Of a stretch of 64,000 nt of DNA, positions 7,590 to 46,067 are shown one piece after another. The notes beneath the pieces are model-generated. The model was not told where the DNA came from. It searched no databases and saw only the letters and a list, made by a program, of their open reading frames with translations. The DNA comes from Schmidtea nova. Taxonomy: Eukaryota. Positions within the stretch are counted from its first letter, which is position 1. Each line of letters begins with the position of its first letter. The position numbers were made by a program, and so were the translations under genes. The DNA is taken from assembly GCA_044892505.1 (NCBI GenBank), contig CM097884.1:14012001-14076000 (forward strand). Direction: 5' to 3'.

Positions 7590-7661
7590 AATCATTATAA
7601 AATATTAAAAAAATAATTAAGGCTACTATTTAGGATTAAGTAAATATAACGATAGAAATAC

Positions 7662-7694
7662 ACACTTGATAAAGGCTGTGCCGAAATATTGGAG
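7662..7694 (+). ncRNA. Hammerhead-like motif with disrupted stem I
   Basis: Same core, but the 3' strand of stem I reads GGAG instead of GUGU. Confidence 0.45.
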
Positions 7695-12233: not shown

Positions 12234-13019
12234 TCATATTAAAAGGTTCTTCTCAAAGTCTATTCAAAGAGGAAATCTTAGAGACATGTAAATAGGCAAA
12301 CGTAATTTTATTGTTGAATAAAAATTATAATAACTTACCTTTTCAATAATTTATAAATATCTAAAAAATATATATTTATAAAATAATTAGATACTTAACT
12401 TAAAATATTAAATAAAATATGTAATCAAATTAAACTATGGTAAAACAGCTTTAAATTATGATTAAAAACATAATTAACAATAATTACTCACCATTTGCCT
12501 GTAATGAGTGTCTGTGACCCTTAACTACAGACTGTTGGTGTATTATGGAAAAAAGGTAACCATAGTATAACGTATTCAATCAGGTTGCCGGATAATGTCG
12601 AATAAACGAGAACCCTAAAAATTTATGAAATTTTAAAATTCTGTATAGAAATTTTAATTATACTGTTGGATCCACCATTTGGTCCACATTTAGCATAAAA
12701 AATAATAATAATAAGAGAGAAAATAAGAATAAATTAAAATAAATATAATTATGAAAATATCAGTAAAAACGAATTAAAATGTAATAAAGAATATTAATTT
12801 AATATAAAAAAATTGGAAGAAAATAAATGTATAATGTAAAAACGTTAAAGAAAATGATATTTAATTATATTTAAATAATAAGAAAGCGAAATAAATAAGT
12901 AAAAAAGAAGAAGAATTAATAAAAATTCGATAAATTAAAACCAGAAAATGCAAATCATATTTGCTAATAAAATTGATTTTATTTTTAATAGAATTGCATT
13001 GATGACCATCAGATTGATG

Positions 13020-13056
13020 CTGATTGGTCAATGAACTGATCTGGTCAGTATAAATA
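13020..13056 (+). promoter_or_regulatory. LTR promoter: inverted CCAAT (CTGATTGGTCAAT) plus TATAAATA
   Basis: The same pair of motifs, in the same order, occurs in the divergent family-2 LTR (39310-39273, minus). Copy in the 3' LTR at 29768-29804. Confidence 0.65.
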
Positions 13057-14289
13057 CTGATCCAGATTCAGATATTTTTAATGTTTTTGTGATTGAAAAA
13101 TTTTTTCTTTGTATTGCTATATACAAACTTTGGAAACTAATAGGTATGAGTATTTTTGTTTTATTGAATTTATAAATTTTATGATTATCTGTCATTGACC
13201 ATTGTAGTTAATTATTAATAAAATATTTTATGATATATGATTTTTAAATTTTTGTCGAGTATAGAATTAAACCCAGCTTCTTCCACTGTGAAATCAGTGG
13301 AAGGAGATGACTATATTTATATATTATATATCTTTTATTAAGCTTCTTCCATCGTGTAATCGGTGGAAGGAGGTAACAGTATCAGTTTATACTAACAACT
13401 AACAAGTATATTTTTTAGAAGTAATTTTTGGGTCGAGCTTCTTCCACTGTGTAATCAGTGGAAGGAGGCGTATATATATTATCTATATACCGTATTTATA
13501 GTATAAAATTACGTATGATTTAAGGGGCTCCGTTCACCGTGCAATCGGGAACATGGAGGCATACTGTGCCGAGTAGAAACGACTGCTCCGTACAGTTAGG
13601 CCGTCCGACCGGTGTAAAGCGCCGTGACGAGGGTAGGAATGTTATTTTTGATTTCTAACCTTATTTTTCACTGGATAGTATAACCAGTTGAAGTTTTATT
13701 TTCTAACCGATTTAGTTTTTCATGAGTGTATAGTTAAATTGAGTTTTGATTTTAGTTGGATACAGATGTAACTGCGATTTGAGTAATCTGATTTTACCTT
13801 GAGATTCACAGAGTGTTAGCGTACATTTTTCGATGGTCACATCTGGGGTTTGTGGGCATAGAGCGGCAGATACACGGTTAAGAATCTGTACAAAATATAA
13901 TTTTAATAACAACATAAAAATCGATAATGCTAACAACGTAGTGATCTACTACGCAAGTAACATAGCAGCAATAGGCTATAGGTTCAAACATTCCACCTAA
14001 ATAATTAAACATAATTGCTTATCCTGAACCCTGTACATAGGGCAGTGGATCTTAGTTTATTTTAATAACTTTCTTATCCTGAATGCTGTATATAGCACAG
14101 GCGTAACTAAATAAAATGCATTATGAAATAAATGTATCTGATCGCTGTATATAGCGACAGTGTTGAAAGCGTAATAGGTACATCATTTTCTTTTCCTAAA
14201 TTAACAATTACCAATTGTCAAAAGTATGAGAATCGTTCGAATCAAGACTACTAATTTCATGTTAATAAACCAATTTCGAATTTTAGAAA

Positions 14290-14880
14290 ATGTCAGCCAA
14301 CACAGCAACTAACCAAGCCGAATTAGACAAAGCATGGAGAATAATCCGCAGCCTCGAAAAGGAAATGCTGCGAAAATCAGAGAAAATAAAAGAAGCCGAT
14401 GGAATAATTACCAACCTAAAGAAAAGCTGGTTCAGTCCAGAACAAATGAAAATGCAAATCACCAAAACTCAACGCTCACAGCGAGCTAACAGCGAACTGC
14501 AAATGGAATTGGACGCAACGAAGATGGAATTAAAGAAATGCCTAAAATCTGTAACGGCATCATATCTAACTCAAGAGCTCAGCCAGCTCATTCGACCAAT
14601 CACTTATCAGCATTGGGCTGACGAAAAGGCAGGATGCTCAAAAGGAACAAGCACAGAGGAACCATCTCAGGTTCAAGCAACGGCGGCCTCCATCACACCA
14701 AAGGACGTAATAATTCCAGAAGTCAAGAAGAAAAAGAAGAGTAAGATGGGCGCACGTCAGCGACGCTGGAAGAAACAAGTTCTTCAGCAATTGGCTCAAC
14801 AATCCAAAGAAATTCCAGAAATTGATTTGAACATGAATTTTGCAATATCAGATGAAGATATTACCAAATACTTTGAATAG
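14290..14880 (+). CDS. LTR-encoded 196-aa coiled-coil protein with basic K/R motif (ORF-B)
   Basis: Intact ORF with TTTTAG|AAAATG immediately upstream; homologous to 36976-37575 and 43738-44199. Confidence 0.8.
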   Translation: MSANTATNQAELDKAWRIIRSLEKEMLRKSEKIKEADGIITNLKKSWFSPEQMKMQITKTQRSQRANSELQMELDATKMELKKCLKSVTASYLTQELSQLIRPITYQHWADEKAGCSKGTSTEEPSQVQATAASITPKDVIIPEVKKKKKSKMGARQRRWKKQVLQQLAQQSKEIPEIDLNMNFAISDEDITKYFE

Positions 14881-15194
14881 GAATTTTGTGATTTGTAAAT
14901 TTTGCTTATTAAATAATTTTTGTTTTGTATTTATCTTATTGTAAAGTATATGAACTAAAGTATTTTATTAAAGGATTTTTAAATTAAATTAAATGTAGAT
15001 TATAAATAAAAGATTGACATAAAGTAATGAACAATAATAGCATTAAAGAAATAACATATCGTAAAAATATTATTTGTTGATATTGTAAAGAAGGGGGCTG
15101 AAAGAAAGTTGAAAGTGGAAATATATTGTAACGAAAGGGGGCGAAAAGAGATAATTGAAATGAAAGATAATGGATGCGGATAGATTAAAATTAA

Positions 15195-15390
15195 AGCGTA
15201 AGTCCTTCTATCGGCAGCGAGACGAACCCGTGAACATAAATGGGGAGTAGTTTTAGCAATAGAGCTCACCTGCCCATCATTGTTCAAACACCTTGCACAT
15301 TTCCAACTCGATTATTACAGGGAAATGATCGAGGGTGCTCGTGTGATATGTAAGCATTTTATGTGAGGTTTTGGATGGAGGAATCCCTAG
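15195..15390 (+). ncRNA. Conserved structured RNA element near the LTR 3' end (copy in 3' LTR at 31943-32138)
   Basis: Alignable to 36668-36858 (-) and 44396-44572 (+) with compensatory base-pair changes (see findings). Confidence 0.6.
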
Positions 15391-15458
15391 AGCGTTTAAG
15401 AATAATTATTAATTTTGTATTTTTGTTTTAACCCAATCCGAAACCAACAACATAAATT

Positions 15459-15476
15459 TGGGGGCTCAGCCGGGAA
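15459..15476 (+). promoter_or_regulatory. Primer binding site, tRNA-Pro type
   Basis: TGGGGGCTCAGCCGGGAA, close to the canonical tRNA-Pro PBS TGGGGGCTCGTCCGGGAT; located 9 nt after the LTR end. Confidence 0.8.
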
Positions 15477-15615
15477 TCAAATTGGTTTTTGTGCGAAAAA
15501 TTGAATCCAACAATAACAGGGAGTTTTAAAGTGCCCCTCAGCCGGGATGAAAATGGTTTTTGTGCGAAAAATTGAATCCAATAATAACCAGGAGTTTTAA
15601 AGTGCCCCTCAGCCG
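15465..15615 (+). repeat. ~72-bp tandem duplication containing the PBS core CTCAGCCG(GGA)
   Basis: Units start at 15465, 15537 and 15608 (last one partial). Confidence 0.85.
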
Positions 15616-15915
15616 AAAACATAATTGATTTTGTATAAAAGTGAAAACAATATCAACAGAGAATTTTGAAAAACAACTATTGAATAAATATAACAACAGA
15701 CGACTAATAATTGATATTAAAAATGAAATAAATAAACATAAATAAATATGTCGGGACGACAATTTGATGAAGCAGGGAGAGGTTTAACATCAGAAAACGA
15801 AATGTACCACTACTTTTAAATAATACAAATCGAGCAAATAGAGAAACAAGATGTTGAAATTTTTATTTTTAACAAATAAAACAGCAAATATATTAATAAT
15901 ATCAACTATTTAGCA

Positions 15916-16377
15916 ATGAACGACAAATTAAAAGAAATAGAAGAATTCTTAAACACTGAAAACAAAACATACGATGAACTATGCGAGAAAATAAGTCGAA
16001 TAAGAGAATCCGGATTCAAAGAACCCATGACACAAACCGAAGAGACAACAGAGCTGATAAAAATAATGGAAAGAGTTGACAAAATAGATATTACTACTAG
16101 ATATAAATGGTACCAAGCGAGATTGGAAAACGCTGAGTTAAATATAAAATGCAGACAGCTAGAGCAACAATTAACTTCAACATACAACAAGTGGACGATA
16201 CAAGGAACTGAGACAGCTAAGAAATTTAAACTATGTTACATATGTCGAGAAAGGGAGAATAAAATCATGTTTTTACCATGTGGACATTTTCGGTTTTGTG
16301 GAATCTGTGCAGCCAATTGCGACAAATGCCCGATGTGCAATCTCGAAATAGACGAAAGAATTATTGTGTATTTATAA
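15916..16377 (+). CDS. Coiled-coil + C-terminal IAP/MDM2-type C3HC4 RING protein (153 aa)
   Basis: CYICRERENKIMFLPCGHFRFCGICAANCDKCPMCNLEIDERIIVYL at the extreme C-terminus; TTTAG|CAATG upstream. Confidence 0.85.
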   Translation: MNDKLKEIEEFLNTENKTYDELCEKISRIRESGFKEPMTQTEETTELIKIMERVDKIDITTRYKWYQARLENAELNIKCRQLEQQLTSTYNKWTIQGTETAKKFKLCYICRERENKIMFLPCGHFRFCGICAANCDKCPMCNLEIDERIIVYL

Positions 16378-16418
16378 TAAATAAATTTTGAAATTGAATA
16401 ATATGATTTGTGATAAAG

Positions 16419-16590
16419 GATAATGAGAATTAAGATGACAATTCATAATGAGAATTAATATGAGAATTCATAATGAGAATTGATATGAGAATTCATAATA
16501 GGAATTAATATGAGAAAGGATAATGAGAATTAATATGATACTTGATAATGAGAATTAATAATGAGAATTTAAAATGAGAGTTGATAATGG
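16419..16590 (+). repeat. 12-13-bp minisatellite (ATGAGAATT core)
   Basis: Direct reading. Confidence 0.85.
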
Positions 16591-17029
16591 CAATGACAGA
16601 AATCATAATAACAATTGATATTTATAAATAATTTTTGAGCTGCTCACGAGTAGTCCGTTAAGCACCCATTGGGAGGAACCAACTGATCAACTTACCCGAG
16701 ATGTATAGAAAGGGGCCCATCGCGGATATTGGAAAGCTTTTGTGATGTGACTGATCACCACATCTTGCATTAGTAGACCAATGCGATCTTTTTGTATATT
16801 TTGGTTGGGGTGAAAGGTAGGGACAATCTAATGAGGTTTAAGTGCATGCAGAAAATACAAATAAAAATGAGAGAATAGAACACTGATCAGTGAAAGTCGA
16901 AAGAACATTAAGAAAATAAGTGGAATGAAAGTTAATGTGATAACTCTCATAACAATAGAGATAATTCAGCTGAATGATAACTAGTGAAGTGGATAATTGC
17001 GGTTAACCGGTTAAAGAGATTAGTTAAAT

Positions 17030-17725
17030 ACCTTGTATAAAAAGGTCAAGGGCAAATAAGCCATATTAGTTACTCTGAAAGAAGGGTCAAGGGCAAATAA
17101 GCCATATTAGTTACTCTGAAAGAAGGGTCAAGGGCCAACGAGCCGTATTAGTTAATTACTCTGAAAGAAGGGTCAAGGGCCAACGAGCCGTATTAGTTAA
17201 TTACTCTGAAAGAAGGGTCAAGGGCCAACGAGCCGTATTAGTTAATTACTCTGAAAGAAGGGTCAAGGGCCAACGAGCCGTATTAGTTAATTACTCTGAA
17301 AGAAGGGTCAAGGGCCAACAAGCCGTATTAGTTAATTACTCTGAAAGAAGGGTCAAGGGCCAACGAGCCGTATTAGTTAATTACTCTGAAAGAAGGGTCA
17401 AGGGCCAACGAGCCGTATTAGTTGAATACTCTGAAAGAAGAGTCAAGGGCAAACAAGCCAGATGAGTTAAATACCTTGTACAAAAAGGTCAAGGGCCAAC
17501 GAGCCATATTAGTTGAATACTCTGAAAAAAGAGTCAAGGGCAAACAAGCCAGATGAGTAAATACCTTGTACAAAAAGGTCAAGGGCCAACGAGCCATATT
17601 AGTCAAATACTCTGAAAGAAGAGTCAAGGGCAAACAAGCCATATTAGTTAAATACCTTGTAAAAAAAGGTCAAGAGCAAACAAGTCAGATTATTTAAGAT
17701 TACCCCGAAAGAAGGGTCAAAGGCC
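17030..17725 (+). repeat. 41-46-bp tandem array (~16 units; core unit 45 bp)
   Basis: ACTCTGAAAGAAGGGTCAAGGGCCAACGAGCCGTATTAGTTAATT recurs at 17113, 17158, 17203 and onward. Confidence 0.95.
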
Positions 17726-18584
17726 TAACTAAGCAGGTGATTATTCTCTAAGAAGGTATTTTCCCTAGAGAAGGGCCATGGAGTCAAGCGAATAAATTAA
17801 ATTAGGGCATAGAAGAGCCAAGTGAATAAGTGAATAAATTAGAGAAGAGCCAAGTGAATAAATTAAATTATGGCGTAGAGAGCCAAGGGAATAAATAAGC
17901 AACAGAGATGAAATAAAACCAAGTTGTAATCGTCGACGATGTTAAGAGTAATGAGCACTAGAAATTAAGTAATACGAGTAAAGATGATTAAGTAAACTAG
18001 AGATTCAGTATGCATACGAGTAGAAATAGGAATAAGAGAAATTAGAGTTGACCGGAAAAACCGGTAGAAATAGTGAGAATAATGAATAATGATGAGAAAT
18101 TAGAGATGACTGGAAAATTTGATAGGAATAGTGAGAATAGTGAGTAATGATGATATAATGAATAGTGATAAAATGATAATTGAGTCAGGAGAACTCAAGG
18201 GAATTAAAGCGTTTGAGCGACAAATTAAATTGGGAGACTGAGGGAAAAGTAACGAATTTATTTGATAACGATAGATAATTATTACGACCATATAGATAAT
18301 TGTTACCAGTGAATAGATAATTTAAATAGACTTAAATAAAGGGGAAACCGGGAATGGGGAAACAATGGAAACCCAATAATGAGGAATAAAAGCGCAACGA
18401 TAACAATGATGTATCGTTGAAGTGACTTTTTAATTTAGATATACGGAACAGAACAAGTCAAACAACCAGCCAATCAATCAGAATACGATAACAGAGAAAC
18501 AGAAAAATTGATAAATCAAAGAAAAGTAAACCGAGATCAAGAACAGTTAAAAATCAAGAAGTCAATAATTCACAAAGAAATAAA

Positions 18585-21500
18585 TTGAGATCAAGAGCAG
18601 TTAGTGCTACAATCGAAAAAGTTGATAATTCACAGAGAAATAAATCGAAACAAAGAGCAACCAGTGCTACAAAGAAAACAAATCCTAAAGGAAGTAAATC
18701 AAGAAGAGTAATAGTAGAAAAGTCAAAAGTCGAAAACAGTAAATTTGCTAAAACTAACGAAAGTGAAACAGAAGAAAGTTTAAGTGAAACCTACGATAAG
18801 TATAATAATACGGAAGCATCAGATAACGAGTCAATAAACACAGAAGAAGTAGAAGCAGAAATTGATAATAATTCAAACGAAACGAATAACGAGCATACTA
18901 GTGAAACAAGAGGAAACGAGAGTAAAACGACTCAAGACAGCGGAATTGAAATGAACGAGCATAAAGAAGAAATCAAAGATAAATTTACTGGAGAACCATT
19001 CAATGGAGATGCCAGCAAGTTAGAAACGTTCTTAAAAGAATTTGGTATATTTGTAGAAGTGTGTAAATGGAAACCAGAAACGATAAGAAGCAGAATTCAG
19101 TTATATTTAAAAGACAGTGCGTTAGACTTATATTTAGAAGCTAAAAATTCGGATGATCAACTCGATAGTTGGGAAAAGATAAAGAATTTTTTCCAGCAAA
19201 CGTTTGGAATAAATAAAGTATTAAATGAAGCGTTTACAGAATTTTCAATGAGGAAACAAAAAGTTAATGAATCAAATGCAGTATATGCAAGTGAATTAAA
19301 GAAATTGGCTAAATTGGCATTTAATCAAAATAGTCCAATGAGTCCAGAATTAATGGCAGCAATTTTTGTGGGGGGATTGAGAAGACCCGATATAAGAGCA
19401 CAAGTTGGATGCCAAGGTTGTAAAACAATAGATGAAGCGTTGGAAATCGCTAACAGATTTGAATTACATATGATCGGAAGTGAAGGAAGAATTTACCTAG
19501 CAATGGATACGACACAAAATGAACAAGCAATGAAGATAAACAATCATATTCCGAATTCACAACAATTAAACCGACCACCACCTCAAAGGAGAAATGAGGG
19601 AAACAAAGTACAAAATTTCGGAAACCAAAATAATTATAATACGCAAGGACAGACAAAGCAATGTCAAACCTGTGGAAAGTTAGGACATTGGCAACAAGAA
19701 TGTTTCGCGAATTTAAATTGTAAAAAGTGTGGAAGAAAAGGACATTCGGAAAGTAGATGTTACCTGAATTCATGTTATAACTGTGGACAACCAGGTCATA
19801 TGGCAAAGAATTGCCAACAACAAAACAACCAACAAAGGAATTGGTCGAACAACGGAAATCGACAAAGTTATGCGAATCAACAGAATAACGGAAACCGTCA
19901 GAATTATGAAAATCAACAGAGTAATTATAACCAGAACAAAAGTACCACCAAAGAGATACATTTATTACAAGAAGTTCAGAGATTGACAGAGTTAATAAAC
20001 AATACACCGAGAGGAAATCAACAAACGAATCAACAACAAATGAATATGATGAGAAAAGTAGAAAGTGAAAATGAACGACTAAACCGAGAAAGTCAAGCAC
20101 GACATGCTCAAGAATGGGCAAGAATACAAAGAGAAGACGAACAGAAACGACAAGAAAGAGAACGACAACCATTGAGAATTAATATGATGAGAGCAGCGAA
20201 TCAAACAAGAGATAACAAAGAAGATATTGAACCAGAAACAAACCAGATAAACCCAAATCCGGAAGATGAAGAAAACCAAAAAGAAAAAGTACAAGAAAAC
20301 GAAGAAGATATTGAACAAAAAAGGATGTTGGTAGTCATGCCAAACGATCATGTATTTCGATTTGAATATGATGAAAAAGAGGAAGTAGAAGTATTAATTA
20401 ATAAAGTAAACAAGACGATTCCGGGAACGACGAAACTACCCCGAGAAGCATTCTTACAGACAGAAGACGAAGCAGCAATAAAATTAAAACCAACTGACAT
20501 ATGGAAAGATTTAGGAGTACCAATGAATAAAATGAAAGTCACAGTTATCCAAGAAATAGAAGAAAATAACGATGAAGAGAAATCAAAACCAGTAACAAAA
20601 GTCAAAAGTAGAGCATTGAAGATATTTGAAGAGAAAATCAAACAGAGAAAAGCAATGGAGATAGAAAAACGAAGAGGCCAAATAGAAGAATCAGGAAACA
20701 ATGACAAAAAGGAAGAAATACCACCAAACAGTATACCAGAAAACTATGAACTTAGACGATGTAGAAGTATGGATCCGCAAGGAGATTCACTCACAATTGC
20801 AGTCATGTCATCAAATACAGGACCAGTATTAACTACAACCATAGAAATAAATGGAAAAGAAATAGAAGCGATGATAGATACAGGAGCAAACATTTCGGCG
20901 ATAGATGTTAAATGGATACCGCAAGAACAGAGACAAGAAATTGAAAGAACAAATGTTCATGTAATAGCATGTAGTAAAGAGATTGTTGAAGTTGCAGGAA
21001 GATGGTGGGTAAAAATACGACACCAAAATATAGAAATCGAAACGTATGTAGCAGTAATACCAGCTTTAAGCGTACCATGTATAATCGGAACAGATTTAAT
21101 GCCAACACTATTCAAAGAAATAATCATCGATCTTGGAACAATGAGATTAAAGGACAGAACAGGGAAAATATGTGCCATGAAAACAAAAGTAATAAACTCG
21201 AAACAAATAATGATACCGGAAGAGAGAATCATGACGAGATCACAAACCATCAGAATAAATATGCTCAGAGCGGAAGAAATTAACACAACTAGTCAAGTAG
21301 ACAGTGAGAAAATCGATGTTGACAAAGAAATCGTACGGAAAGCCAAAGAAATAAACGAAAGATGGGAAATCAGACAAGAAAAAGACGTATTATGGGATAT
21401 ACGACAAATAATTAGTGATTACGCACGAGGATGCCCAACCAAACCAATCATAATAGAATTATTAAAGAAAATACCAGAGATACTCGTATTACAAGATACA

Positions 21501-24500
21501 GGAGGTGCAACTGCACTGCACAATGCCATAAGTTGGGGTAAAACAGAAAAGGTAAAAGAATTCTTGAAAATAGCAAAAGAAACGAATCAAAATCTAGACA
21601 TTGTAAATCGAGAATTAGAAACGCCAATGATGACAGCAACACTAAGCTTAGCAGATAAAGAAATAGTAGATATGCTGATTAACGCAGAATTCAACTGGAC
21701 AGCTCGGGATAGAAGAGGAAACACAGTTTTAAATCATGCAATAATGAGTGAAAATCAAATGATACTAAAACATATAACAACCAACCTCACATGGGAAATC
21801 GATGAATTAATCAAAGGAGAAATTATGAAGGAAGCGATTCGGAAAGGAAACACTAAAACAATATGGAAACTAATACAATGGAAATGGCCGGATAATAAAA
21901 CATGGGTATTAGATATAAACAAAGAATTTAGCGAAGGACAGAATGCACTATTGAGATACTTATTAGAGTTTACGTGCGATCAGAGAACGATGTTAGCACT
22001 AATAAATAGAGGAAAAATAAATATTAGTAAAAACGAAGAGGAATATAAACTAGAAGTTGAAAAGAAAGCTTTATTCAGGAAAATTTGGGTATGGTGTCAA
22101 AAACAAATACGCAAAGACATAAGCTACAAAAATCTAAATGATTTCCAAGAAAAGTATAAGATAATAATAAAGGAATACAAGAAGCTAGTGGAGATATTAA
22201 ACGATCCAGAAAAATTTAATCAAGCAATAAATCAGAAAGAAGAAGAAAGTAAAAGGATACTCACACCATTGTTCAACGCGAAGATAGATTATCAAGAAAG
22301 ATTGGATGCAATACACAAAAAAGCAAAGGAACTATTACCAGAATTCAAAGATACTAAATACGCCTTGGAAATACTAGGCGCGATAGTAGAAAAAGTACAC
22401 GCGTACGCGAAAGGAATGTATAATGGAGATGATATAATAACTATAAAAAGAGAAATGCCAGTTGCGTTTTTATTAACAAAAGAAAGAATAATACCGATTC
22501 ATAGAGCATTGAGAGCAGGAAAAGACGGTAAAGTAATCGAAATCGCAAGATTAATGCATCAATGTGGATGTGATATGAATATGATAGATGAAAAAGGAGA
22601 CACCCTTATGGTATACGCAGCAAGAGCAAAAACAAAAATCAAAGTATTAGAAGAGTTATATAAAGCAGGCGCAGGATTAATCGGAAAAACTGTCAAAGAC
22701 AACTCAATATTAGACGTGACATTATTAGGTCCAAATTGGGAAATGTTGAATTTCATTAAAACGATAACAAACCAAGAAGAGATAGATTATTTAACAGAAA
22801 CCGTAAAAAGACCAAGTGTATTGACAATGATGCAAAACATCAAATTGACAGAAGAAGTATTAAACTGGAAAATACCAAATACAAATAAACCAGCATTTAA
22901 AGTTAACAAGTTTATGGAGAATAATCGAAATTGGTGTATCCAAAGCGCACTAATAACTTATATATGGCCTGAAATTGTAGAAATTTTCATGAGAAGAGAA
23001 GACCTGAGATTTACAAACAAGCCTAAAGAAACGGAAAAGGTAGTCAAATGGAAAGAACTGATGAGAACACACCTTCAAAGTTGGATAAAAGCCAAGAAAG
23101 AAATTATACAGTATCAGTTAGACAACAAAAAGATACCCGAAGATATAGAATTCCAAGAATTTGAAGCAAGTAACTTAACCTCATTATATTATGCAAAACT
23201 AATAGAAACAAGTAATGTCGAGGACGACATTTTTAACGAGCCAGGGAGAGATAATAATACTGACAAAGACGATGACGATGAAGAAAACAATGACGACGAG
23301 AGAAATAAAGACGATGATGATGAAAATAATCACGGAAACCCAGATAACCACGAGCAAACCAACAAAGAAGACGAGAATCAAGAGAGAAATACAAAGAACC
23401 AAGAATCCAAAGAACAAAGAGAAGACAACCCTAAAAACAATCATGAAAACAAAGGAACAAGTTACAGAAGGAATCCATTATTCAGACCAGAAGTATTAAT
23501 GTTCGCAATAATCATAACACTTATGGGACAATGTGAAGCAACGAAACAAGAGATATCAGTAGAAATGGGAGTACCAATACAAAAAGCATCAACACAGATA
23601 ATGAATTCAAAGGATATTGAACAAGTATGTTGGGTAAAAGAGAATGAAATTCTCGGAGATAACAACCTATTACGATGTATAATACCAAACCCCGAGCGAA
23701 AAACTATAATAATAGACGAAATGGACATGGAAACATGGTACAGAATATGTACAATCAGAAAACCTAAAGACGAAAAATCACACAAGACAGTTACATGCCA
23801 AGTATACAAGACACCCAAAGTTCGATACGAGTTCGCCAATGGAATAGACCTTCCAGGACCATTTTATTTTAAAATAACAAGAGAACCAGCATCAAGAAAA
23901 GTCTTACAACAACCAAGAACCAAGATAACAACACCAAGTATAAGGAATACAACGGATAAACCAGAAACAAACAGAAGAAATACAACGGATAAACCAGAAC
24001 CAAAAAGACGAACGAAACAAACCACAAGAGTAATCTATAATTCCAAGTTGTTATGTATAGCACTTATTATGACAATACTGAAGCGATTAGAAGAAGGAAT
24101 AGAAATGGATACGATGACACTAATAGACATGGAAGAGACACAAATAACAAATCAAAAATGTTGGTTTAGAAATGATGAAAAATTAGAATTAAAGGAATCA
24201 AGAGAAATTCGAAAATTAGAAGCGGGTAAAACGAACAAAGTAATCAAGATAATAAAGATAAAAACAGACAGAATTCATAAACTATGTTTATTGGAAAAAG
24301 AGAGAAACAAGAAAGGAATAACCAATTGTAAAACATTCCAAGCAGGGAAAATAATAACGTTCGCAAGAAAAATGGGGAAAAGAAACAAACAAAATTTCCA
24401 GAAATTAACCATAACGTTAGAAATAACGGGAATAGAACAAAACGTAAACGGAGTATGCTGGAGAAAATACGAGAAAGAAGCAAATAAACACAAATCATCA

Positions 24501-25463
24501 CAATGTCAAACAATCAGAGGAACAACTGCAGTACAAATAAAAAGCTTAGAAAGAAATCAAACGTATGAAATATGCCTAGTAAAAGAAAATGATCAAATAA
24601 CGAAAGAAGATTTAGAATGCAGAATATACAGAGCACCGAACAGAATAAAAACCATTAAAGCAATACGAAAGAATAAAAGACAACAAAAACCGAAGCATAC
24701 CACTACCGAAAGTCAAACAGAACCAGAGAGGAAAACCTCAGCAACACTTATACTTTGGAAACTAGATAACAAAACAGTAGAAATATGTTGGACAATGATC
24801 AAGAAATATGAAGAAAGACAACCACAACAATGCGAAAAGATGAACAAAGAAGAGGAGATCAGAATTCAGAACCTACAATTGGACAAACAATACGAAATAT
24901 GCGCAATAGAAAAGGCAGATAAATTTGGAAACCAGCAAGAAAAATGTGGAAACTACTATACACCGACAAATACAACGATCAAAGGAAGAATCAAGAAACT
25001 AACTTTCGGAGAATTGAATCAAACAACGAAACAAATGGAAAACGAGGAAACAATAATAGATTCTTATGCACAATGGAAACCAGAAAAAGTAATCCAGGAA
25101 GTCAAAAGGAAACAACAAGAACGACAACAATTGGAACTCAAATTGAAAGGACAATATGGACCAATGATCAATCAAAGCAAATTCACCCAAATCAATGTTA
25201 ACAAGCAAGGAAGAGAATTAATCGGAGTAGGAATACTGGCAGTATGCGTACCAGTAATAATAATACTATCAATAATATGGCTATGGGACATAATAAAAAA
25301 GAAACCAACCAGACAATGGCCAGATATAAAGATTATGAATTGTAAAATCAAGATACCAGAAGAAGTAAAGAAAGAATTCCAAAGAAGAACCAAAGGCAAA
25401 GAATTTTGGAAGCAGATCGAAGACGAGGAGCGACACGATGAAAAGGCAGTGATGATAGTATAG
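18585..25463 (+). CDS. Gag(3xCCHC)-Ubl-like-aspartic protease-ankyrin-FN3-like-TM polyprotein (start uncertain; first in-frame ATG at 18951)
   Basis: Capsid-like FNGDASKLETFLKEF; CCHC x3 (19662-19814); MIDTGA...IIGTD protease (~20822-21150); ankyrin-like repeats (~21490-21780 and ~22490-22765); signal-like segment (~23490-23540); Cys-containing FN3-like repeats; TM segment (~25218-25286). Confidence 0.88.
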   Translation: MRSRAVSATIEKVDNSQRNKSKQRATSATKKTNPKGSKSRRVIVEKSKVENSKFAKTNESETEESLSETYDKYNNTEASDNESINTEEVEAEIDNNSNETNNEHTSETRGNESKTTQDSGIEMNEHKEEIKDKFTGEPFNGDASKLETFLKEFGIFVEVCKWKPETIRSRIQLYLKDSALDLYLEAKNSDDQLDSWEKIKNFFQQTFGINKVLNEAFTEFSMRKQKVNESNAVYASELKKLAKLAFNQNSPMSPELMAAIFVGGLRRPDIRAQVGCQGCKTIDEALEIANRFELHMIGSEGRIYLAMDTTQNEQAMKINNHIPNSQQLNRPPPQRRNEGNKVQNFGNQNNYNTQGQTKQCQTCGKLGHWQQECFANLNCKKCGRKGHSESRCYLNSCYNCGQPGHMAKNCQQQNNQQRNWSNNGNRQSYANQQNNGNRQNYENQQSNYNQNKSTTKEIHLLQEVQRLTELINNTPRGNQQTNQQQMNMMRKVESENERLNRESQARHAQEWARIQREDEQKRQERERQPLRINMMRAANQTRDNKEDIEPETNQINPNPEDEENQKEKVQENEEDIEQKRMLVVMPNDHVFRFEYDEKEEVEVLINKVNKTIPGTTKLPREAFLQTEDEAAIKLKPTDIWKDLGVPMNKMKVTVIQEIEENNDEEKSKPVTKVKSRALKIFEEKIKQRKAMEIEKRRGQIEESGNNDKKEEIPPNSIPENYELRRCRSMDPQGDSLTIAVMSSNTGPVLTTTIEINGKEIEAMIDTGANISAIDVKWIPQEQRQEIERTNVHVIACSKEIVEVAGRWWVKIRHQNIEIETYVAVIPALSVPCIIGTDLMPTLFKEIIIDLGTMRLKDRTGKICAMKTKVINSKQIMIPEERIMTRSQTIRINMLRAEEINTTSQVDSEKIDVDKEIVRKAKEINERWEIRQEKDVLWDIRQIISDYARGCPTKPIIIELLKKIPEILVLQDTGGATALHNAISWGKTEKVKEFLKIAKETNQNLDIVNRELETPMMTATLSLADKEIVDMLINAEFNWTARDRRGNTVLNHAIMSENQMILKHITTNLTWEIDELIKGEIMKEAIRKGNTKTIWKLIQWKWPDNKTWVLDINKEFSEGQNALLRYLLEFTCDQRTMLALINRGKINISKNEEEYKLEVEKKALFRKIWVWCQKQIRKDISYKNLNDFQEKYKIIIKEYKKLVEILNDPEKFNQAINQKEEESKRILTPLFNAKIDYQERLDAIHKKAKELLPEFKDTKYALEILGAIVEKVHAYAKGMYNGDDIITIKREMPVAFLLTKERIIPIHRALRAGKDGKVIEIARLMHQCGCDMNMIDEKGDTLMVYAARAKTKIKVLEELYKAGAGLIGKTVKDNSILDVTLLGPNWEMLNFIKTITNQEEIDYLTETVKRPSVLTMMQNIKLTEEVLNWKIPNTNKPAFKVNKFMENNRNWCIQSALITYIWPEIVEIFMRREDLRFTNKPKETEKVVKWKELMRTHLQSWIKAKKEIIQYQLDNKKIPEDIEFQEFEASNLTSLYYAKLIETSNVEDDIFNEPGRDNNTDKDDDDEENNDDERNKDDDDENNHGNPDNHEQTNKEDENQERNTKNQESKEQREDNPKNNHENKGTSYRRNPLFRPEVLMFAIIITLMGQCEATKQEISVEMGVPIQKASTQIMNSKDIEQVCWVKENEILGDNNLLRCIIPNPERKTIIIDEMDMETWYRICTIRKPKDEKSHKTVTCQVYKTPKVRYEFANGIDLPGPFYFKITREPASRKVLQQPRTKITTPSIRNTTDKPETNRRNTTDKPEPKRRTKQTTRVIYNSKLLCIALIMTILKRLEEGIEMDTMTLIDMEETQITNQKCWFRNDEKLELKESREIRKLEAGKTNKVIKIIKIKTDRIHKLCLLEKERNKKGITNCKTFQAGKIITFARKMGKRNKQNFQKLTITLEITGIEQNVNGVCWRKYEKEANKHKSSQCQTIRGTTAVQIKSLERNQTYEICLVKENDQITKEDLECRIYRAPNRIKTIKAIRKNKRQQKPKHTTTESQTEPERKTSATLILWKLDNKTVEICWTMIKKYEERQPQQCEKMNKEEEIRIQNLQLDKQYEICAIEKADKFGNQQEKCGNYYTPTNTTIKGRIKKLTFGELNQTTKQMENEETIIDSYAQWKPEKVIQEVKRKQQERQQLELKLKGQYGPMINQSKFTQINVNKQGRELIGVGILAVCVPVIIILSIIWLWDIIKKKPTRQWPDIKIMNCKIKIPEEVKKEFQRRTKGKEFWKQIEDEERHDEKAVMIV

Positions 25464-25585
25464 AGGGTGGGATATGACTGTAAATAATATTGTAAATTAC
25501 AAAGCATTACCGTATATAGTATGGGTATTAGTATTATAGAGTATATAAAAAGAGAAAAGAGAAAAATAATAATGTATTTTAGAAA

Positions 25586-25921
25586 ATGAATGTACAAGGA
25601 GAAACAACCGAAATGACTATGACTATGCGATGGAAAGCACAATGTGAAACGTTAGTTCGATCAATTAATGCACTACAGAATCAATTGGTAGAGAAGCAAA
25701 ATATATTAGCAGATTGTTACAACAATATCTTTGAGCAGTTACATAAAATAGAAGAGCAACAGAAAATAATAACAGAACTAACCAGAGAGAATCAAAGATT
25801 GAGACAAACGATGGAAATAAATCAACTAACAAGAAGAGATGAATCAGAAGGTCAATGGCTAGATTGGGTAATAAATGGATTAGAGAATGATATAGAACCA
25901 GATTCAACGAGCGAACCATAG
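25586..25921 (+). CDS. 111-aa coiled-coil protein of unknown function
   Basis: Intact ORF, heptad-like pattern, TTTTAG|AAAATG upstream. Confidence 0.6.
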   Translation: MNVQGETTEMTMTMRWKAQCETLVRSINALQNQLVEKQNILADCYNNIFEQLHKIEEQQKIITELTRENQRLRQTMEINQLTRRDESEGQWLDWVINGLENDIEPDSTSEP

Positions 25922-26018
25922 TCAAATTGTAGCGGAAAATTGTATATATGTAAAAATAACAACTCTAGAAAAATCAAAAACAAAGAACAAATCAATGTAT
26001 GTATATATTATTGTAGAA

Positions 26019-27374
26019 ATGGATAAAGAGGAACGAGCAGTCGAGATTTTGAGAGCAGCAAACAGAAATTGGAACAAGAGATTTGTATGTGGATATTGTA
26101 ATAATTTATTACGGAAACCAAAGCAAACCGCCTGTGGATGTAGATTATGCACTAGATGTGTACAAATGTTAGAGTTAAAAGGAATAACAGAATGTCCAGA
26201 ATGTAAAGAAGGACAAATAGTGTTAGACGAAACGAGACCAGATAGAGCAACTCAGAGAGAAATCATGAGCATATTAATTGAATGTATAAATCCACCATGC
26301 ATATGGCAAGGACAAATCAGTGAAATTGAAAATCATATAGAAAATTGTGAAGAAAAGAGAAGCGAATGTGAAAAGTGTAAAGAAACGATAATTTTAAAAG
26401 ACAAAGAGAAACACAGAGATGAATGCAAAGAGGAAGAAATCGCATGTGAATATTGCGAAATTCGAGAAACAAGGAGAAAAATTGAAGAGGAGCACATCAA
26501 TATAAAAGAAGAGAAAATATGTGAACAGTATGTAGGAGTGTGCCCAAACAAATGTGAAATTACCGAAGAAGTGAAATTACGAGAACATTGGGAAAAGTGT
26601 ACAGAAATACCAAGAGAATGTCCTTACAACAGATATGGATGCAAGGAAAAGAAGTCTCAACAAAATATGAAACAACATTTAGAAACAGAAGCAATCAATC
26701 ATATTGAAATGACAGACAGAACAATTCAGAAATTGGAAAAAGAAGTGGAATCTCATAAAATAATGATGAACCTATTATTAGAAACGAGAGAACAGTTTGA
26801 ATTAACCCGAGGAAGGATGGAAAAGAAAATAATAGCCATCAAGGAATTAGCAAAAGGAATGAAAGTGCAATATAACAAGTTAATACAAGAAATTGATGAG
26901 AAAAAAGATTTACCAATAGCACCTTATGTGTGGAAAATAACGGATTTCCGAAATAAATTGGAAGATGCACGAAGCTTCAAGAAAACTGCGGTAATAAGCC
27001 CACCATTTTACTTATGGAAAAACGGGGCTAAAGTGAGATTGAAAGTATATCCAAACGGAGATGGGACAAGTATGGGAAAACACCTATCAATATTTTTTGC
27101 GTTTTGCAAAGGAGAATATGACGATTTAATCGATTGGCCGATAGGAGTAGGAGTAATGATAAAAATCAGGGGTTTAAACGAAACCATAGAAAAGAGATTC
27201 ACGACAGACAAAGGAGCAGTTACGAGTAACAGACCAACAGAAGAATGTGGATTAGCAAGTGGAGAACCACACTTTGTATTACAAAGCAAGATATGGGGAT
27301 TATTGTATGAGGACACCTTATACATAGAAATGGAAAGGAACGAAAAGGCAGATAGAAAAGGATGGTTGGCGTAG
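26019..27374 (+). CDS. Intronless TRAF-family protein (RING, zinc fingers, coiled coil, MATH/TRAF-C)
   Basis: RING CGYC...CGCRLCTRC...CPEC; TRAF zinc finger PDRATQREIMSILIEC..PCIWQGQISEIENHIENC; TRAF-C YVWKITDF...SPPFY...VYPNGDG..GKHLSIFF...GEYDDLIDWP. Start placed at 26019 (TGTAG|AAATG) rather than the track's 25995. Confidence 0.92.
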   Translation: MDKEERAVEILRAANRNWNKRFVCGYCNNLLRKPKQTACGCRLCTRCVQMLELKGITECPECKEGQIVLDETRPDRATQREIMSILIECINPPCIWQGQISEIENHIENCEEKRSECEKCKETIILKDKEKHRDECKEEEIACEYCEIRETRRKIEEEHINIKEEKICEQYVGVCPNKCEITEEVKLREHWEKCTEIPRECPYNRYGCKEKKSQQNMKQHLETEAINHIEMTDRTIQKLEKEVESHKIMMNLLLETREQFELTRGRMEKKIIAIKELAKGMKVQYNKLIQEIDEKKDLPIAPYVWKITDFRNKLEDARSFKKTAVISPPFYLWKNGAKVRLKVYPNGDGTSMGKHLSIFFAFCKGEYDDLIDWPIGVGVMIKIRGLNETIEKRFTTDKGAVTSNRPTEECGLASGEPHFVLQSKIWGLLYEDTLYIEMERNEKADRKGWLA

Positions 27375-27478
27375 CAAGAGAAAATGATCGTGTAAATAAA
27401 CTGTACAAAACAATATAAAATGATAAATAAACAAAATAATAAAAGTAGCCTGATTGAAAATATTTGTAATTATAGAAA

Positions 27479-28582
27479 ATGGGAAACGTCGAAATCAGTT
27501 TACAAGCAGTAACCGCACATCAAGATGAAGTTATTTGTGAGCATTTAGAACAAATTGAAAGTTGGATCCACGCATATTACCACAAACAAAAAGAAGTAGA
27601 AAGACAAGCCGAACAAATAACAGAAGCCAAAAGATTAAAGCAATTAAGTCAAGATAAAATAGACGAATTATATGAATTATTGGAGAAACAAAAAGAATAT
27701 TATAAAAAGATGATGAAAGAACGACGAGAAGAAAGAGAGCGAGAACGAACAGAAATGGAACGAAAAATGTACTCGATTACCGAGCAAGCAAGATATTGGA
27801 AAAAAGAAGCGAAAGAATCTTATACGAAAGCAAGAGAAATAATCGAAAGAACGGCGTACAGCGATGATTGGAAGTTATTTGAAGAAATCGATAAATTAAA
27901 AGAGGAATTAGAACAGAAAACCTATCAGGAAATATCGAGCAAGAAATGGAATATAAAGAGACAACAATTCATCAGAGAGCAAGCAGGAAAAATTAAACAA
28001 CTTCTGCACCAGATTGAAAGATCGGAAAGAGAATTATATTTCAGTAAACAACAATCCGATGCAAACCTCAGAGCAGGGATGCAGAAAGAGGAAGATATGA
28101 AGCGCGATATTAATGGTTATCAAGGAGTAATCACTCAAAAGAAGATAGAGTTAAAGAAAACTAAAGAAAGATTAGAAGAAACAAAACAAAGCTATGAAGA
28201 AAATTTATTAAAATTAGAAGAAGCAAAACAAAGCTATGAGGAAAATTTATTAAATCTAACCAAAGAAAATGAAGAGTTGAAACAAAAACTGATACAAAAA
28301 TTAACACCACCAAAAGAGACAGATATCACCAAAGCAGTAATAAAAATGATGGAAGAGGAAGAGAAAAACAATAAAATAACAGAATTAGAAAAACGGATCG
28401 AAGCGTTAACAGAACAATCAAATTATTTAGAATATCTGTTAGACGAAGAAATCCAATTATCACACTTCTATCGAGATGAAGTAACAATGTGGAGAAACAC
28501 GATAGTATGGTTACCACCCCCTACAAACCAAGTGGAACCTCAAGATGAAGGTTTTCACGAACCCAATGAGTCGTTAGTATAA
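27479..28582 (+). CDS. 367-aa long coiled-coil protein
   Basis: Intact E/K-rich ORF with internal repeat KQSYEENLL x2; TTATAG|AAAATG upstream. Confidence 0.7.
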   Translation: MGNVEISLQAVTAHQDEVICEHLEQIESWIHAYYHKQKEVERQAEQITEAKRLKQLSQDKIDELYELLEKQKEYYKKMMKERREERERERTEMERKMYSITEQARYWKKEAKESYTKAREIIERTAYSDDWKLFEEIDKLKEELEQKTYQEISSKKWNIKRQQFIREQAGKIKQLLHQIERSERELYFSKQQSDANLRAGMQKEEDMKRDINGYQGVITQKKIELKKTKERLEETKQSYEENLLKLEEAKQSYEENLLNLTKENEELKQKLIQKLTPPKETDITKAVIKMMEEEEKNNKITELEKRIEALTEQSNYLEYLLDEEIQLSHFYRDEVTMWRNTIVWLPPPTNQVEPQDEGFHEPNESLV

Positions 28583-28657
28583 AAGAAGTGCGAAAATTAG
28601 TTGTAAATATCTGTAACATAACAATGTCAAACTGTATTGACAAATTTGTAAAGTGAA

Positions 28658-29221
28658 ATGAAGAAGCTCGCAATACTGATAATCCTAAACGTAATCGAGA
28701 TCACCCAACAAAGAGAAGACCGTCCGATATTAAAAGAAAACCTACAAGTCTTACCCGAAAAAATCTATAAAGAAATAGATAATCTATTAAAAGAAGCAAT
28801 CAAAGAAATATCTCAAATTCAATTGTCAACAGCACCTAACCCAGTATCAACGCAACAAACCCTGTGCAAAATCAATAACAAATTAGAGAAGATTCGAAAA
28901 ACCTTAAAAGAAAGTAAAGAAACTATAAAGAATTTACATCGAGCAGAAATTCAATACCAAGAGAGATGGATCGTTGCGATTATAATCGTATTAACAATTA
29001 GTACAACAACCTGCGCAATTACCATTCTCATCGCAGTATATAGAATAAAGATCCTAAAACAAAAACAATCGATCATCAATCAAACAACAGCATACGATGA
29101 CAATGCCCGAAGACAAATGAGAAATCAGTTCAACAGAATACGAACCCAATACGAGTTACCAGCAATTCCACAGAACCAGTCCAATCCAGTGCGAGTTATG
29201 AACTATTTGTATAAACAATAA
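28658..29221 (+). CDS. 187-aa predicted type-I membrane protein
   Basis: Signal-like MKKLAILIILNVIE, coiled coil, TM WIVAIIIVLTISTTTCAITILIAVY, then basic stop-transfer RIKILK. Confidence 0.7.
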   Translation: MKKLAILIILNVIEITQQREDRPILKENLQVLPEKIYKEIDNLLKEAIKEISQIQLSTAPNPVSTQQTLCKINNKLEKIRKTLKESKETIKNLHRAEIQYQERWIVAIIIVLTISTTTCAITILIAVYRIKILKQKQSIINQTTAYDDNARRQMRNQFNRIRTQYELPAIPQNQSNPVRVMNYLYKQ

Positions 29222-29380
29222 AGACGTGACAAAATATTTGATTAACAATTTTCTGAATTTTCTATATTTTCTTCGTGATTACGTATAGACTAAACTCACC
29301 TTATGTGAATCTTTATGCTTATGTATCAAACGTAAAATTTTTTATGAATGTTGAGTATAAGTAATAGTGTATAATTAATT

Positions 29381-29411
29381 GCGGGACGCAATTTTAGGGG
29401 TCCCCGAGTGA
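29381..29411 (+). promoter_or_regulatory. Atypical PPT region before the 3' LTR
   Basis: GCGGGACGCAATTTTAGGGGTCCCCGAGTGA directly abuts TGTTGG; only a short purine run. Confidence 0.45.
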
Positions 29412-32197
29412 TGTTGGATCCACCATTTGGTCCACATTTAGCATAAAAAATAATAATAATAAGAGAGAAAATAAGAATAAATTAAAATAAATATAATTAT
29501 GAAAATATCAGTAAAAACGAATTAAAATGTAATAAAGAATATTAATTTAATATAAAAAAATTGGAAGAAAATAAATGTATAATGTAAAAACGTTAAAGAA
29601 AATGATATTTAATTATATTTAAATAATAAGAAAGCGAAATAAATAAGTAAAAAAGAAGAAGAATTAATAAAAATTCGATAAATTAAAACCAGAAAATGCA
29701 AATCATATTTGCTAATAAAATTGATTTTATTTTTAATAGAATTGCATTGATGACCATCAGATTGATGCTGATTGGTCAATGAACTGATCTGGTCAGTATA
29801 AATACTGATCCAGATTCAGATATTTTTAATGTTTTTGTGATTGAAAAATTTTTTCTTTGTATTGCTATATACAAACTTTGGAAACTAATAGGTATGAGTA
29901 TTTTTGTTTTATTGAATTTATAAATTTTATGATTATCTGTCATTGACCATTGTAGTTAATTATTAATAAAATATTTTATGATATATGATTTTTAAATTTT
30001 TGTCGAGTATAGAATTAAACCCAGCTTCTTCCACTGTGAAATCAGTGGAAGGAGATGACTATATTTATATATTATATATCTTTTATTAAGCTTCTTCCAT
30101 CGTGTAATCGGTGGAAGGAGGTAACAGTATCAGTTTATACTAACAACTAACAAGTATATTTTTTAGAAGTAATTTTTGGGTCGAGCTTCTTCCACTGTGT
30201 AATCAGTGGAAGGAGGCGTATATATATTATCTATATACCGTATTTATAGTATAAAATTACGTATGATTTAAGGGGCTCCGTTCACCGTGCAATCGGGAAC
30301 ATGGAGGCATACTGTGCCGAGTAGAAACGACTGCTCCGTACAGTTAGGCCGTCCGACCGGTGTAAAGCGCCGTGACGAGGGTAGGAATGTTATTTTTGAT
30401 TTCTAACCTTATTTTTCACTGGATAGTATAACCAGTTGAAGTTTTATTTTCTAACCGATTTAGTTTTTCATGAGTGTATAGTTAAATTGAGTTTTGATTT
30501 TAGTTGGATACAGATGTAACTGCGATTTGAGTAATCTGATTTTACCTTGAGATTCACAGAGTGTTAGCGTACATTTTTCGATGGTCACATCTGGGGTTTG
30601 TGGGCATAGAGCGGCAGATACACGGTTAAGAATCTGTACAAAATATAATTTTAATAACAACATAAAAATCGATAATGCTAACAACGTAGTGATCTACTAC
30701 GCAAGTAACATAGCAGCAATAGGCTATAGGTTCAAACATTCCACCTAAATAATTAAACATAATTGCTTATCCTGAACCCTGTACATAGGGCAGTGGATCT
30801 TAGTTTATTTTAATAACTTTCTTATCCTGAATGCTGTATATAGCACAGGCGTAACTAAATAAAATGCATTATGAAATAAATGTATCTGATCGCTGTATAT
30901 AGCGACAGTGTTGAAAGCGTAATAGGTACATCATTTTCTTTTCCTAAATTAACAATTACCAATTGTCAAAAGTATGAGAATCGTTCGAATCAAGACTACT
31001 AATTTCATGTTAATAAACCAATTTCGAATTTTAGAAAATGTCAGCCAACACAGCAACTAACCAAGCCGAATTAGACAAAGCATGGAGAATAATCCGCAGC
31101 CTCGAAAAGGAAATGCTGCGAAAATCAGAGAAAATAAAAGAAGCCGATGGAATAATTACCAACCTAAAGAAAAGCTGGTTCAGTCCAGAACAAATGAAAA
31201 TGCAAATCACCAAAACTCAACGCTCACAGCGAGCTAACAGCGAACTGCAAATGGAATTGGACGCAACGAAGATGGAATTAAAGAAATGCCTAAAATCTGT
31301 AACGGCATCATATCTAACTCAAGAGCTCAGCCAGCTCATTCGACCAATCACTTATCAGCATTGGGCTGACGAAAAGGCAGGATGCTCAAAAGGAACAAGC
31401 ACAGAGGAACCATCTCAGGTTCAAGCAACGGCGGCCTCCATCACACCAAAGGACGTAATAATTCCAGAAGTCAAGAAGAAAAAGAAGAGTAAGATGGGCG
31501 CACGTCAGCGACGCTGGAAGAAACAAGTTCTTCAGCAATTGGCTCAACAATCCAAAGAAATTCCAGAAATTGATTTGAACATGAATTTTGCAATATCAGA
31601 TGAAGATATTACCAAATACTTTGAATAGGAATTTTGTGATTTGTAAATTTTGCTTATTAAATAATTTTTGTTTTGTATTTATCTTATTGTAAAGTATATG
31701 AACTAAAGTATTTTATTAAAGGATTTTTAAATTAAATTAAATGTAGATTATAAATAAAAGATTGACATAAAGTAATGAACAATAATAGCATTAAAGAAAT
31801 AACATATCGTAAAAATATTATTTGTTGATATTGTAAAGAAGGGGGCTGAAAGAAAGTTGAAAGTGGAAATATATTGTAACGAAAGGGGGCGAAAAGAGAT
31901 AATTGAAATGAAAGATAATGGATGCGGATAGATTAAAATTAAAGCGTAAGTCCTTCTATCGGCAGCGAGACGAACCCGTGAACATAAATGGGGAGTAGTT
32001 TTAGCAATAGAGCTCACCTGCCCATCATTGTTCAAACACCTTGCACATTTCCAACTCGATTATTACAGGGAAATGATCGAGGGTGCTCGTGTGATATGTA
32101 AGCATTTTATGTGAGGTTTTGGATGGAGGAATCCCTAGAGCGTTTAAGAATAATTATTAATTTTGTATTTTTGTTTTAACCCAATCCGAAACCAACA
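29412..32197 (+). repeat. 3' LTR (family 1)
   Basis: No differences from the 5' LTR seen by eye; all ORF-track translations in the two LTRs are identical. Confidence 0.95.
31038..31628 (+). CDS. ORF-B copy in the 3' LTR
   Basis: Identical translation to 14290-14880. Confidence 0.8.
   Translation: MSANTATNQAELDKAWRIIRSLEKEMLRKSEKIKEADGIITNLKKSWFSPEQMKMQITKTQRSQRANSELQMELDATKMELKKCLKSVTASYLTQELSQLIRPITYQHWADEKAGCSKGTSTEEPSQVQATAASITPKDVIIPEVKKKKKSKMGARQRRWKKQVLQQLAQQSKEIPEIDLNMNFAISDEDITKYFE

Positions 32198-46065: not shown

Positions 46066-46067
<2 letters not shown>

Follow-up and report, generated by a model that had tools for sequence, protein, structure and literature searches.

How does a retroelement without a polymerase of its own come to be freshly inserted in a genome? 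The question is raised by a giant long terminal repeat (LTR) retroelement occupying positions 12664-32197 (19.5 kb) of the window, i.e., the whole 64,000-nt stretch of Schmidtea nova contig CM097884.1 analyzed here, whose own numbering is used throughout. An earlier note on this DNA had described a recently mobilized, satellite-like element that has no reverse transcriptase (RT), ribonuclease H (RNase H), or integrase and carries immune and cell-death genes in that space. Our answer is partly different: with a probability of roughly 85%, the window copy is a freshly inserted, non-autonomous Burro-type element with two in-frame deletions, most likely reverse-transcribed and integrated by enzymes that pol-bearing members of the same family provided in trans. 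The family is best read as a recombining clan, whose pol-less genomes (77%) are mobilized in trans. The ends of the element and the sites of the two deletions are as follows:

12660..12663, + strand: left copy of the target-site duplication (TSD), ATAC
12664..15449, + strand: 5' LTR, 2,786 bp, with TG...CA ends
15459..15476, + strand: primer-binding site (PBS) for tRNA-Pro(TGG), 9 nt after the LTR; 17 of 18 bases match the tRNA-Pro(TGG) of this genome at its 3' end
20732..20743, + strand: env-block junction; a 5,385-nt in-frame block is missing that in relatives encodes an env-type fusion glycoprotein (Monjiviricetes_fusion, E=8e-71)
21201..21217, + strand: pol-block junction; a 3,021-nt in-frame block is missing that in relatives contains RVT_1, RT_RNaseH, Integrase_H2C2, and rve
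29412..32197, + strand: 3' LTR
32198..32201, + strand: right copy of the TSD, ATAC

The two LTRs align with 100% identity across 2,786 bp. This identity, the 4-bp TSD, the PBS, and the presence of gag and protease bear out the description in the earlier note, as do its recent insertion and its multi-copy nature, with TSD-flanked relatives found genome-wide. The absence of the polymerase was also confirmed: a tblastn search of the whole element with two pol blocks from relatives gave a best E-value of 0.19, while the same queries matched a pol-bearing control copy at 94-99.7% identity, and a six-frame motif search of the element found no YxDD, xPFG, or TDAS. Of the enzymes that an autonomous element encodes, the window copy thus retains only the protease. 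Other copies in the genome are colinear with it apart from two extra blocks, which flank the protease on either side; the absence of the first of these, the env block, had previously been overlooked. The full order in complete copies is gag, ubiquitin-like (Ubl) region, env block, protease, RT-RNase H-integrase, ankyrin repeats, and membrane module, in open frames of 5,115-5,147 codons (5,140 in a sister family). PF24664 was found in env-bearing copies with 95-98% DNA identity to the window element. The family of the window copy thus includes pol-bearing members, the most likely source of helper enzymes.

These relatives also bear on the origin of the cargo. Two sister families, most of whose members retain env and pol, contain homologues of all seven open reading frames (ORFs) of the window element in the same order, with 42-71% protein identity outside the protease. 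Since pol-bearing members of the window family and both sister families share this cargo order, the cargo is ancestral and no replacement for pol. The earlier proposal of a separate satellite-like lineage, in which captured immune and cell-death genes took the place of pol, is therefore very improbable: the element is indeed non-autonomous, without pol, and its cargo is intact and under selection, but the doubly deleted copies form no group, and the same cargo has been described for autonomous Burro elements (PMC6431247).

We also considered an assembly artefact or a segmental duplication. Collapse can yield identical LTRs, and no read or contig crosses the whole element: contigs from the four runs listed as containing it, all from a single study and none of them RNA, reach into each of its 30 bins without spanning it. 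The env junction of the window copy is bridged in three of the four runs with 0-1 differences, while no bridge with 31 letters per side was found for the pol junction among the contigs listed; loose contig ends show env-bearing and pol-bearing alternatives. As dozens of loci share both junctions, on three contigs and with different flanks and their own TSDs, misassembly is unlikely, and we regard this explanation as the least credible of all.

The junctions themselves indicate that both blocks were lost more than once. Three junctions account for the loss of pol; besides the common one, there is a junction 18 nt shorter and another 48 nt longer. The latter occurs in five copies that are more diverged (86-93% identity over the start of the ankyrin region) and ends directly before the word RINMLRA; it must be of independent origin, and the 18-nt-shorter junction may be independent or secondary. 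For env at least two losses were found, with lengths of 5,385 and 5,388 nt. Every env- and pol-loss length is a multiple of three, and short imperfect repeats lie at all of the losses; this arrangement agrees with template switching and is part of the reason why the frame is retained. A few larger deletions, scored by probe distance, were each seen once. Splicing was rejected as the origin of the two deletions, since GT-AG removal does not fit the junctions, which lie at short direct repeats that are imperfect.

Recurrent deletions bounded on both sides by such repeats could also mean that there are no lasting defective lineages, each deleted copy being made anew from a complete parent by template slippage. 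This is improbable. The deleted junctions bear derived letters of their own, absent at the left border from all 14 pol-bearing copies, and one env junction with several private changes is common to seven copies. In the nearer sister family, moreover, both blocks are usually kept: among the matches listed, env lies upstream of 78 of 84 RNase H matches, and RNase H downstream of 77 of 83 env matches.

Four structural classes make up the family. A degenerate pattern across the env border had 84 matches genome-wide and one across the pol border 70; pairing these matches typed 68 copies, a further 15 were typed from fetched DNA and earlier matches, and one of the 84 remained untyped. Among the 83 typed copies, 51 are env-only, 13 have neither block, 11 are pol-only, and 8 have both, so that 77% are without pol; pol is scored here as present when its borders are, and copies with a mismatch to the env-border pattern are excluded from these counts. 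A previous tally by probe distance (48 env-only, 21 neither, 9 pol-only, 6 both), based on 84 matches with at least 74% identity after weaker and partial matches were dropped, miscalled some copies and was replaced by junction typing. All four classes have inserted recently. Where 1,700 nt or more of an LTR pair could be compared, at most two mismatches were found in 6/8 copies with neither block, 11/17 env-only, 4/6 pol-only, and 3/4 complete copies, and a 4-bp TSD is present in 20 of 21 scorable copies (26 of 47 were not scorable by script). An obligate multipartite system would have no complete single-molecule genome; here 8 of the 83 copies carry both blocks by their borders, with recent LTR pairs among them.

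The classes freely share their sequence. In 12 of 12 segments, copies of one class differ from each other about as much as from copies of other classes (distances 0.02-0.05). The copy nearest to the window element is not the same in each segment and is drawn from all four classes, and beyond about 100 nt from either junction, linkage to it is no higher than background. Each of three env-junction types was found in pol-bearing as well as in pol-less copies (3/2, 2/5, and 6/5, respectively), which indicates several origins of the doubly deleted form, through re-assortment or a new deletion. Four gametes are present in 59-75% of site pairs at least 200 nt apart, the LTR included, a count that has to be read with the reservation given below. 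The LTRs are mosaic between copies but matched within a copy, which suggests that the exchange preceded insertion, as expected for co-packaged RNAs (PMC6894440; PMC10924933). Judged from these sequence comparisons, the structural classes are not separate lineages.

A stronger claim, compatible with the favored one, is reciprocal complementation: env-only copies would supply the envelope and pol-only copies the enzymes of a functionally split genome, with selection keeping the halves apart. The class counts lean that way, as 51 of 59 env carriers have no pol, 11 of 19 pol carriers have no env, and complete copies number 8 where 13.5 are expected (Fisher P=0.003). Most env variants that only pol-less copies have in common are silent (nonsynonymous/silent 18/41 and 8/25; omega 0.11 and 0.08), an older, independent lineage of five pol-less copies bears env, and the split is not seen in the sister families. 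The repulsion between env and pol, however, amounts to an r2 of 0.12, which is matched by 10% of ordinary single-nucleotide polymorphism pairs at the same distance, and it weakened when the last 15 copies were typed (the first 68 gave 0.17, reached by 3.7%). The copies are also not independent, and two deletions born on different genomes begin in repulsion without any selection. With only five complete copies in the comparison, the "private" env variants may stem from complete genomes, and complete copies are still inserting. We thus consider reciprocal complementation possible but doubtful. Equally tentative is the picture of an enveloped giant retroelement en route to a split genome, in which env-only and pol-only forms, repeatedly arisen and outnumbering complete ones by about 8:1, would supply each other and shed doubly deleted recombinants with the whole cargo.

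Selection and age were analyzed in 47 copies chosen by class (11, 22, 9, and 5), the env-only copies partly for long open frames. The ratio of nonsynonymous to synonymous diversity (piN/piS) is 0.04-0.39 in 16 of 16 segments, so that every ORF of the family is under purifying selection. Pol is the most constrained segment (0.04), followed by the halves of the env block (0.07 and 0.17) and gag with protease (0.12); RING, ankyrin, TRAF, membrane module, and small ORFs range from 0.14 to 0.22, which agrees with the selection previously expected for the cargo, and the Ubl region and the frame upstream of the first ATG reach 0.33-0.39. Values are similar in pol-less and pol-bearing copies; because the classes recombine freely, they reflect selection on the genes of the family and not on the pol-less copies themselves. 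Frameshifts are never shared among the 47 copies, apart from one mis-aligned in-frame insertion, and one stop codon is shared. The exception had appeared as eight "shared frameshifts" in a low-complexity linker, which sum to 57 nt and represent that single insertion, split by the aligner.

These observations can be joined in one mechanism, in which members of the four classes likely use one another's proteins and exchange sequence. Pol-less RNA would be packed together with helper polyprotein and a helper RNA that shares its LTR ends and PBS, as the mosaicism suggests, and the helper would most likely come from the same family. The deletions themselves would arise when reverse transcription switches template at short imperfect repeats. 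Switches from one co-packaged RNA to another would bring them into new combinations, so that the doubly deleted form was generated more than once. A deletion would spread only if it leaves intact the polyprotein frame, the protease, and the site in front of the ankyrin block, probably because the RNA must be translated to its end for stability or packaging, i.e., as a requirement in cis. The cargo, ancestral to the lineage, is carried along by all classes.

Several points weigh against mobilization in trans within one recombining clan. There is no clear polypurine tract at 29380-29411, just before the 3' LTR, where a short GC-rich palindrome is located instead. At least two of the copies scored as pol-bearing have internal pol deletions, and the choice of the 47 copies by class and partly by long frames overstates their intactness. 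Four gametes also occur in 0-49% of site pairs at most 15 nt apart, which indicates that recurrent mutation inflates the four-gamete count, and gene conversion at the DNA level in the parent copies could have contributed to the mosaicism. Finally, a sister family could act as the helper, in place of the window family or in addition to it: the tRNA-Pro(TGG) PBS is common to the window family and both sister families, the terminal bases are shared, and the sister families are more numerous. This alternative is limited by a 17% difference in pol (83% identity at the DNA level) and by LTRs that differ over most of their length, aligning over about 200 bp only.

The window copy retains seven ORFs, namely a RING ORF, the polyprotein, four ORFs downstream of it, and one inside each LTR. 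They and their domains are arranged as follows:

14290..14880, + strand: 196-aa ORF in the 5' LTR, basic, coiled-coil-like, of no family; repeated in the 3' LTR at 31038-31628
15916..16377, + strand: 153-aa ORF with a C-terminal IAP-type RING (PF13920, E=1e-11; best PDB matches XIAP and cIAP)
16386..17740, + strand: leader with 12/25-bp and 45-bp tandem arrays
18492..25463, + strand: polyprotein frame of 2,323 codons; first ATG at 18951, giving 2,170 aa
19101..19825, + strand: Gag, with Retrotrans_gag (PF03732, E=3e-5) and three CCHC knuckles (PF00098; three CX2CX4HX4C motifs)
20310..20570, + strand: candidate ubiquitin/SUMO-like domain (lead only), conserved in the sister families
20835..21107, + strand: retropepsin (RVP protease) with intact DTG (PF00077, E=4e-8)
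21252..21272, + strand: RINMLRA word, retained by all three pol-loss junction types
21468..22667, + strand: ankyrin repeats in two clusters (PF12796, E=1e-11; second cluster E=0.006)
23481..25460, + strand: predicted membrane protein; beta repeats with cysteines (FN3-like lead), and at the C-terminus a transmembrane helix (25221-25277)
25586..25921, + strand: 111-aa coiled-coil ORF, 60-62% identical to its sister-family homologues
25995..27374, + strand: full-length TRAF with RING, zinc fingers, coiled coil, and MATH
27479..28582, + strand: 367-aa coiled-coil ORF without Pfam family, 64-66% identical to its sister-family homologues
28658..29221, + strand: 187-aa ORF with one transmembrane helix

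Gag, the CCHC knuckles, protease, ankyrin repeats, TRAF, and RING were called above Pfam cut-offs, and comparison with PDB sequences places the TRAF with TRAF2/3/5 and the RING ORF with XIAP and cIAP, although no BIR match was found in the latter. The TRAF, IAP-type RING, and ankyrin assignments of the earlier note therefore stand, and the cargo ORFs are uninterrupted as stated there; ankyrin, Ubl, and FN3 are not separate ORFs but all lie inside the gag-protease polyprotein, and the latter two are leads only. For Ubl, Atlas rows of Rad60-SLD/ubiquitin at 0.87-0.88 ranked behind unnamed clusters, and the region had neither a Pfam nor a PDB-sequence match. For FN3, Pfam gave E=0.036 and 10 of 10 Atlas rows agreed at 0.86-0.88, and a single-sequence fold model of the membrane region had a mean predicted local distance difference test (pLDDT) score of 36, too low for a structure search. 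Profile searches of PDB sequences with the FN3-like and Ubl alignments returned nothing at E<=10. From the domains, the cargo is predicted to act on host ubiquitin/TNF-type signaling. In the second sister family the whole membrane module is tandemly duplicated (L166:4503-8219), with about 30% identity between the units.

RINMLRA is likely a protease cleavage site. The 153 codons open upstream of the first ATG of the polyprotein (18492-18950) are intact in 46 of 47 copies, with a piN/piS of 0.39, and alignment of the frame to the sister families begins at residue 53-62; translation is likely to begin at a spliced or non-AUG start instead. Of the six accessory ORFs, five (14290, 15916, 25586, 26019, and 27479) are preceded by a T-rich stretch and an AG 2-3 nt before the ATG, resembling splice acceptors. 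The LTR ORF has homologues in both sister families and a piN/piS of 0.16 across 43 copies. Small env-independent fusogens (bioRxiv 10.1101/2025.03.14.642691) provide a lead for the 187-aa membrane ORF.

Some further observations concern the ends and surroundings of the element and its relatives. Two CA dinucleotides 3 nt apart serve as alternative LTR ends in the family (window 15440-15476 and family LTR ends), and the spacing from LTR to PBS is 6-9 nt. Many family copies are inserted in TAA/ATT microsatellites. A nested insertion with ORFs of 1,268-1,336 codons and a weak Endonuclease_7 match is located inside or beside family copies (L014:4919-8722, L015:3563-7366, L012:3921-7928). A tandem array of tRNA-Pro(TGG) genes with a 308-bp period lies near 459.6 Mb of G000:C1 (L161), its pattern having 899 exact matches genome-wide. 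Within the window, an inverted 82% match to the 3' part of the element's LTR at 36668-36868 is probably a piece of a related element. A Penelope-like element (RT and GIY-YIG) forms a 1.9-kb inverted pair, 98% identical, at 2817-7728, and related copies adjoin other fetched loci. The region 41353-57021 contains beta-COP exons on the + strand (46908-57021), interleaved with TPR and Glyco_transf_41 pieces on the - strand. A location of the element inside an OGT gene was not borne out by a Glyco_transf_41 search, in which the first 181 positions of this domain had about 25 dispersed, closely similar genome matches in open frames of up to 1,168 codons; this pattern suggests another mobile element with an OGT fragment.

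The family offers a natural dissection of how an element with a polyprotein of about 5,000 residues propagates. Env and RT-RNase H-integrase are lost as whole modules, while gag, protease, ankyrin repeats, membrane domain, and accessory ORFs are kept in the spreading classes, so that comparing the classes separates apparent needs of the RNA in cis from functions that can be supplied in trans, and losses of env and of pol can be seen next to each other within a single recombining population. There is also a consequence for host gene annotation. Among 150 TRAF matches listed, about 97 are near-identical intronless genes from the window family and more than 50 derive from a sister family; such copies could make the planarian TRAF expansion that has been reported (PMC6109357) look larger than it is and may bear on the piRNA targeting of Traf-6 transcripts (PMC11663942).

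By its sequence organization, the window element is a member of a Burro-type giant Ty3/gypsy family, and Burro was thus the correct comparison in the earlier note. Burro elements, also treated in PMC8532177 and PMC11410931, have been proposed as integrated proviruses acting on apoptosis and ubiquitination, and their cargo (TRAF, RING, ankyrin, SUMO-like) and env are largely published already (PMC6431247). Like the window family, Burro1-4/GYPSM1 of dugesiid planarians have a giant gag-first polyprotein with CCHC knuckles, tandem repeats, and multi-kb LTRs (PMC6431247); their SUMO-like domain has only a candidate counterpart in the window element. Env lies in frame between gag and protease, as in the window family but deleted in the window copy, and the order protease-RT-RNase H-integrase followed by ankyrin is that of our pol-bearing members; MATH/TRAF, RING, and ankyrin cargo is present in the window element itself (PMC6431247). 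MATH/TRAF is described for Burro inside the polyprotein or as an accessory ORF, and the window element has a full-length separate TRAF ORF downstream of the polyprotein. It differs from Burro in missing env and RT-RNase H-integrase. The Burro section of PMC6431247 names neither an FN3-like membrane domain nor four further accessory ORFs present here, and it does not mention deleted classes; the published Burro motifs BIR, BCL2-like, and dUTPase-like, which are partly HHpred-based, had no Pfam match in the window or in the blocks of its relatives. Our literature search found no account of reciprocal env-less and pol-less Burro classes or of otherwise deleted ones; it did not extend to Jurka 2007 or to Grohme 2018 and its supplements, which could contain one. 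The kind of element, most of its cargo, and defective majorities mobilized in trans are thus known, and the four-class structure is unreported in the literature searched.

Among defective elements of other hosts, plant TR-GAG elements also keep LTRs and gag without pol, and their transposition with a related autonomous partner has been shown (PMC8704663). They contain a single gag ORF, whereas the window element has seven ORFs, which include protease and some 10 kb of other coding sequence, and is not of the TR-GAG type. In mule deer, CrERV lineage B expands with a common env deletion and recombines with intact relatives (PMC8662619), and the retrotransposon "clan" concept describes mosaic progeny of co-packaged RNAs (PMC6894440). 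These accounts deal with env-less or generally defective copies, whereas pol-less env-bearing copies are the majority class here. The ERVK[2-1-LTR] system of cattle is similar in its competent minority (15%) and defective majority (85%), in trans-complementation, and in four-gamete evidence of co-packaging between types (PMC10924933). It has one deletion where the window family has two reciprocal ones (PMC10924933), and its D-type has no intact ORFs, whereas in the window family the defective majority has gag, protease, cargo, and for the most part env still in frame and subject to selection.

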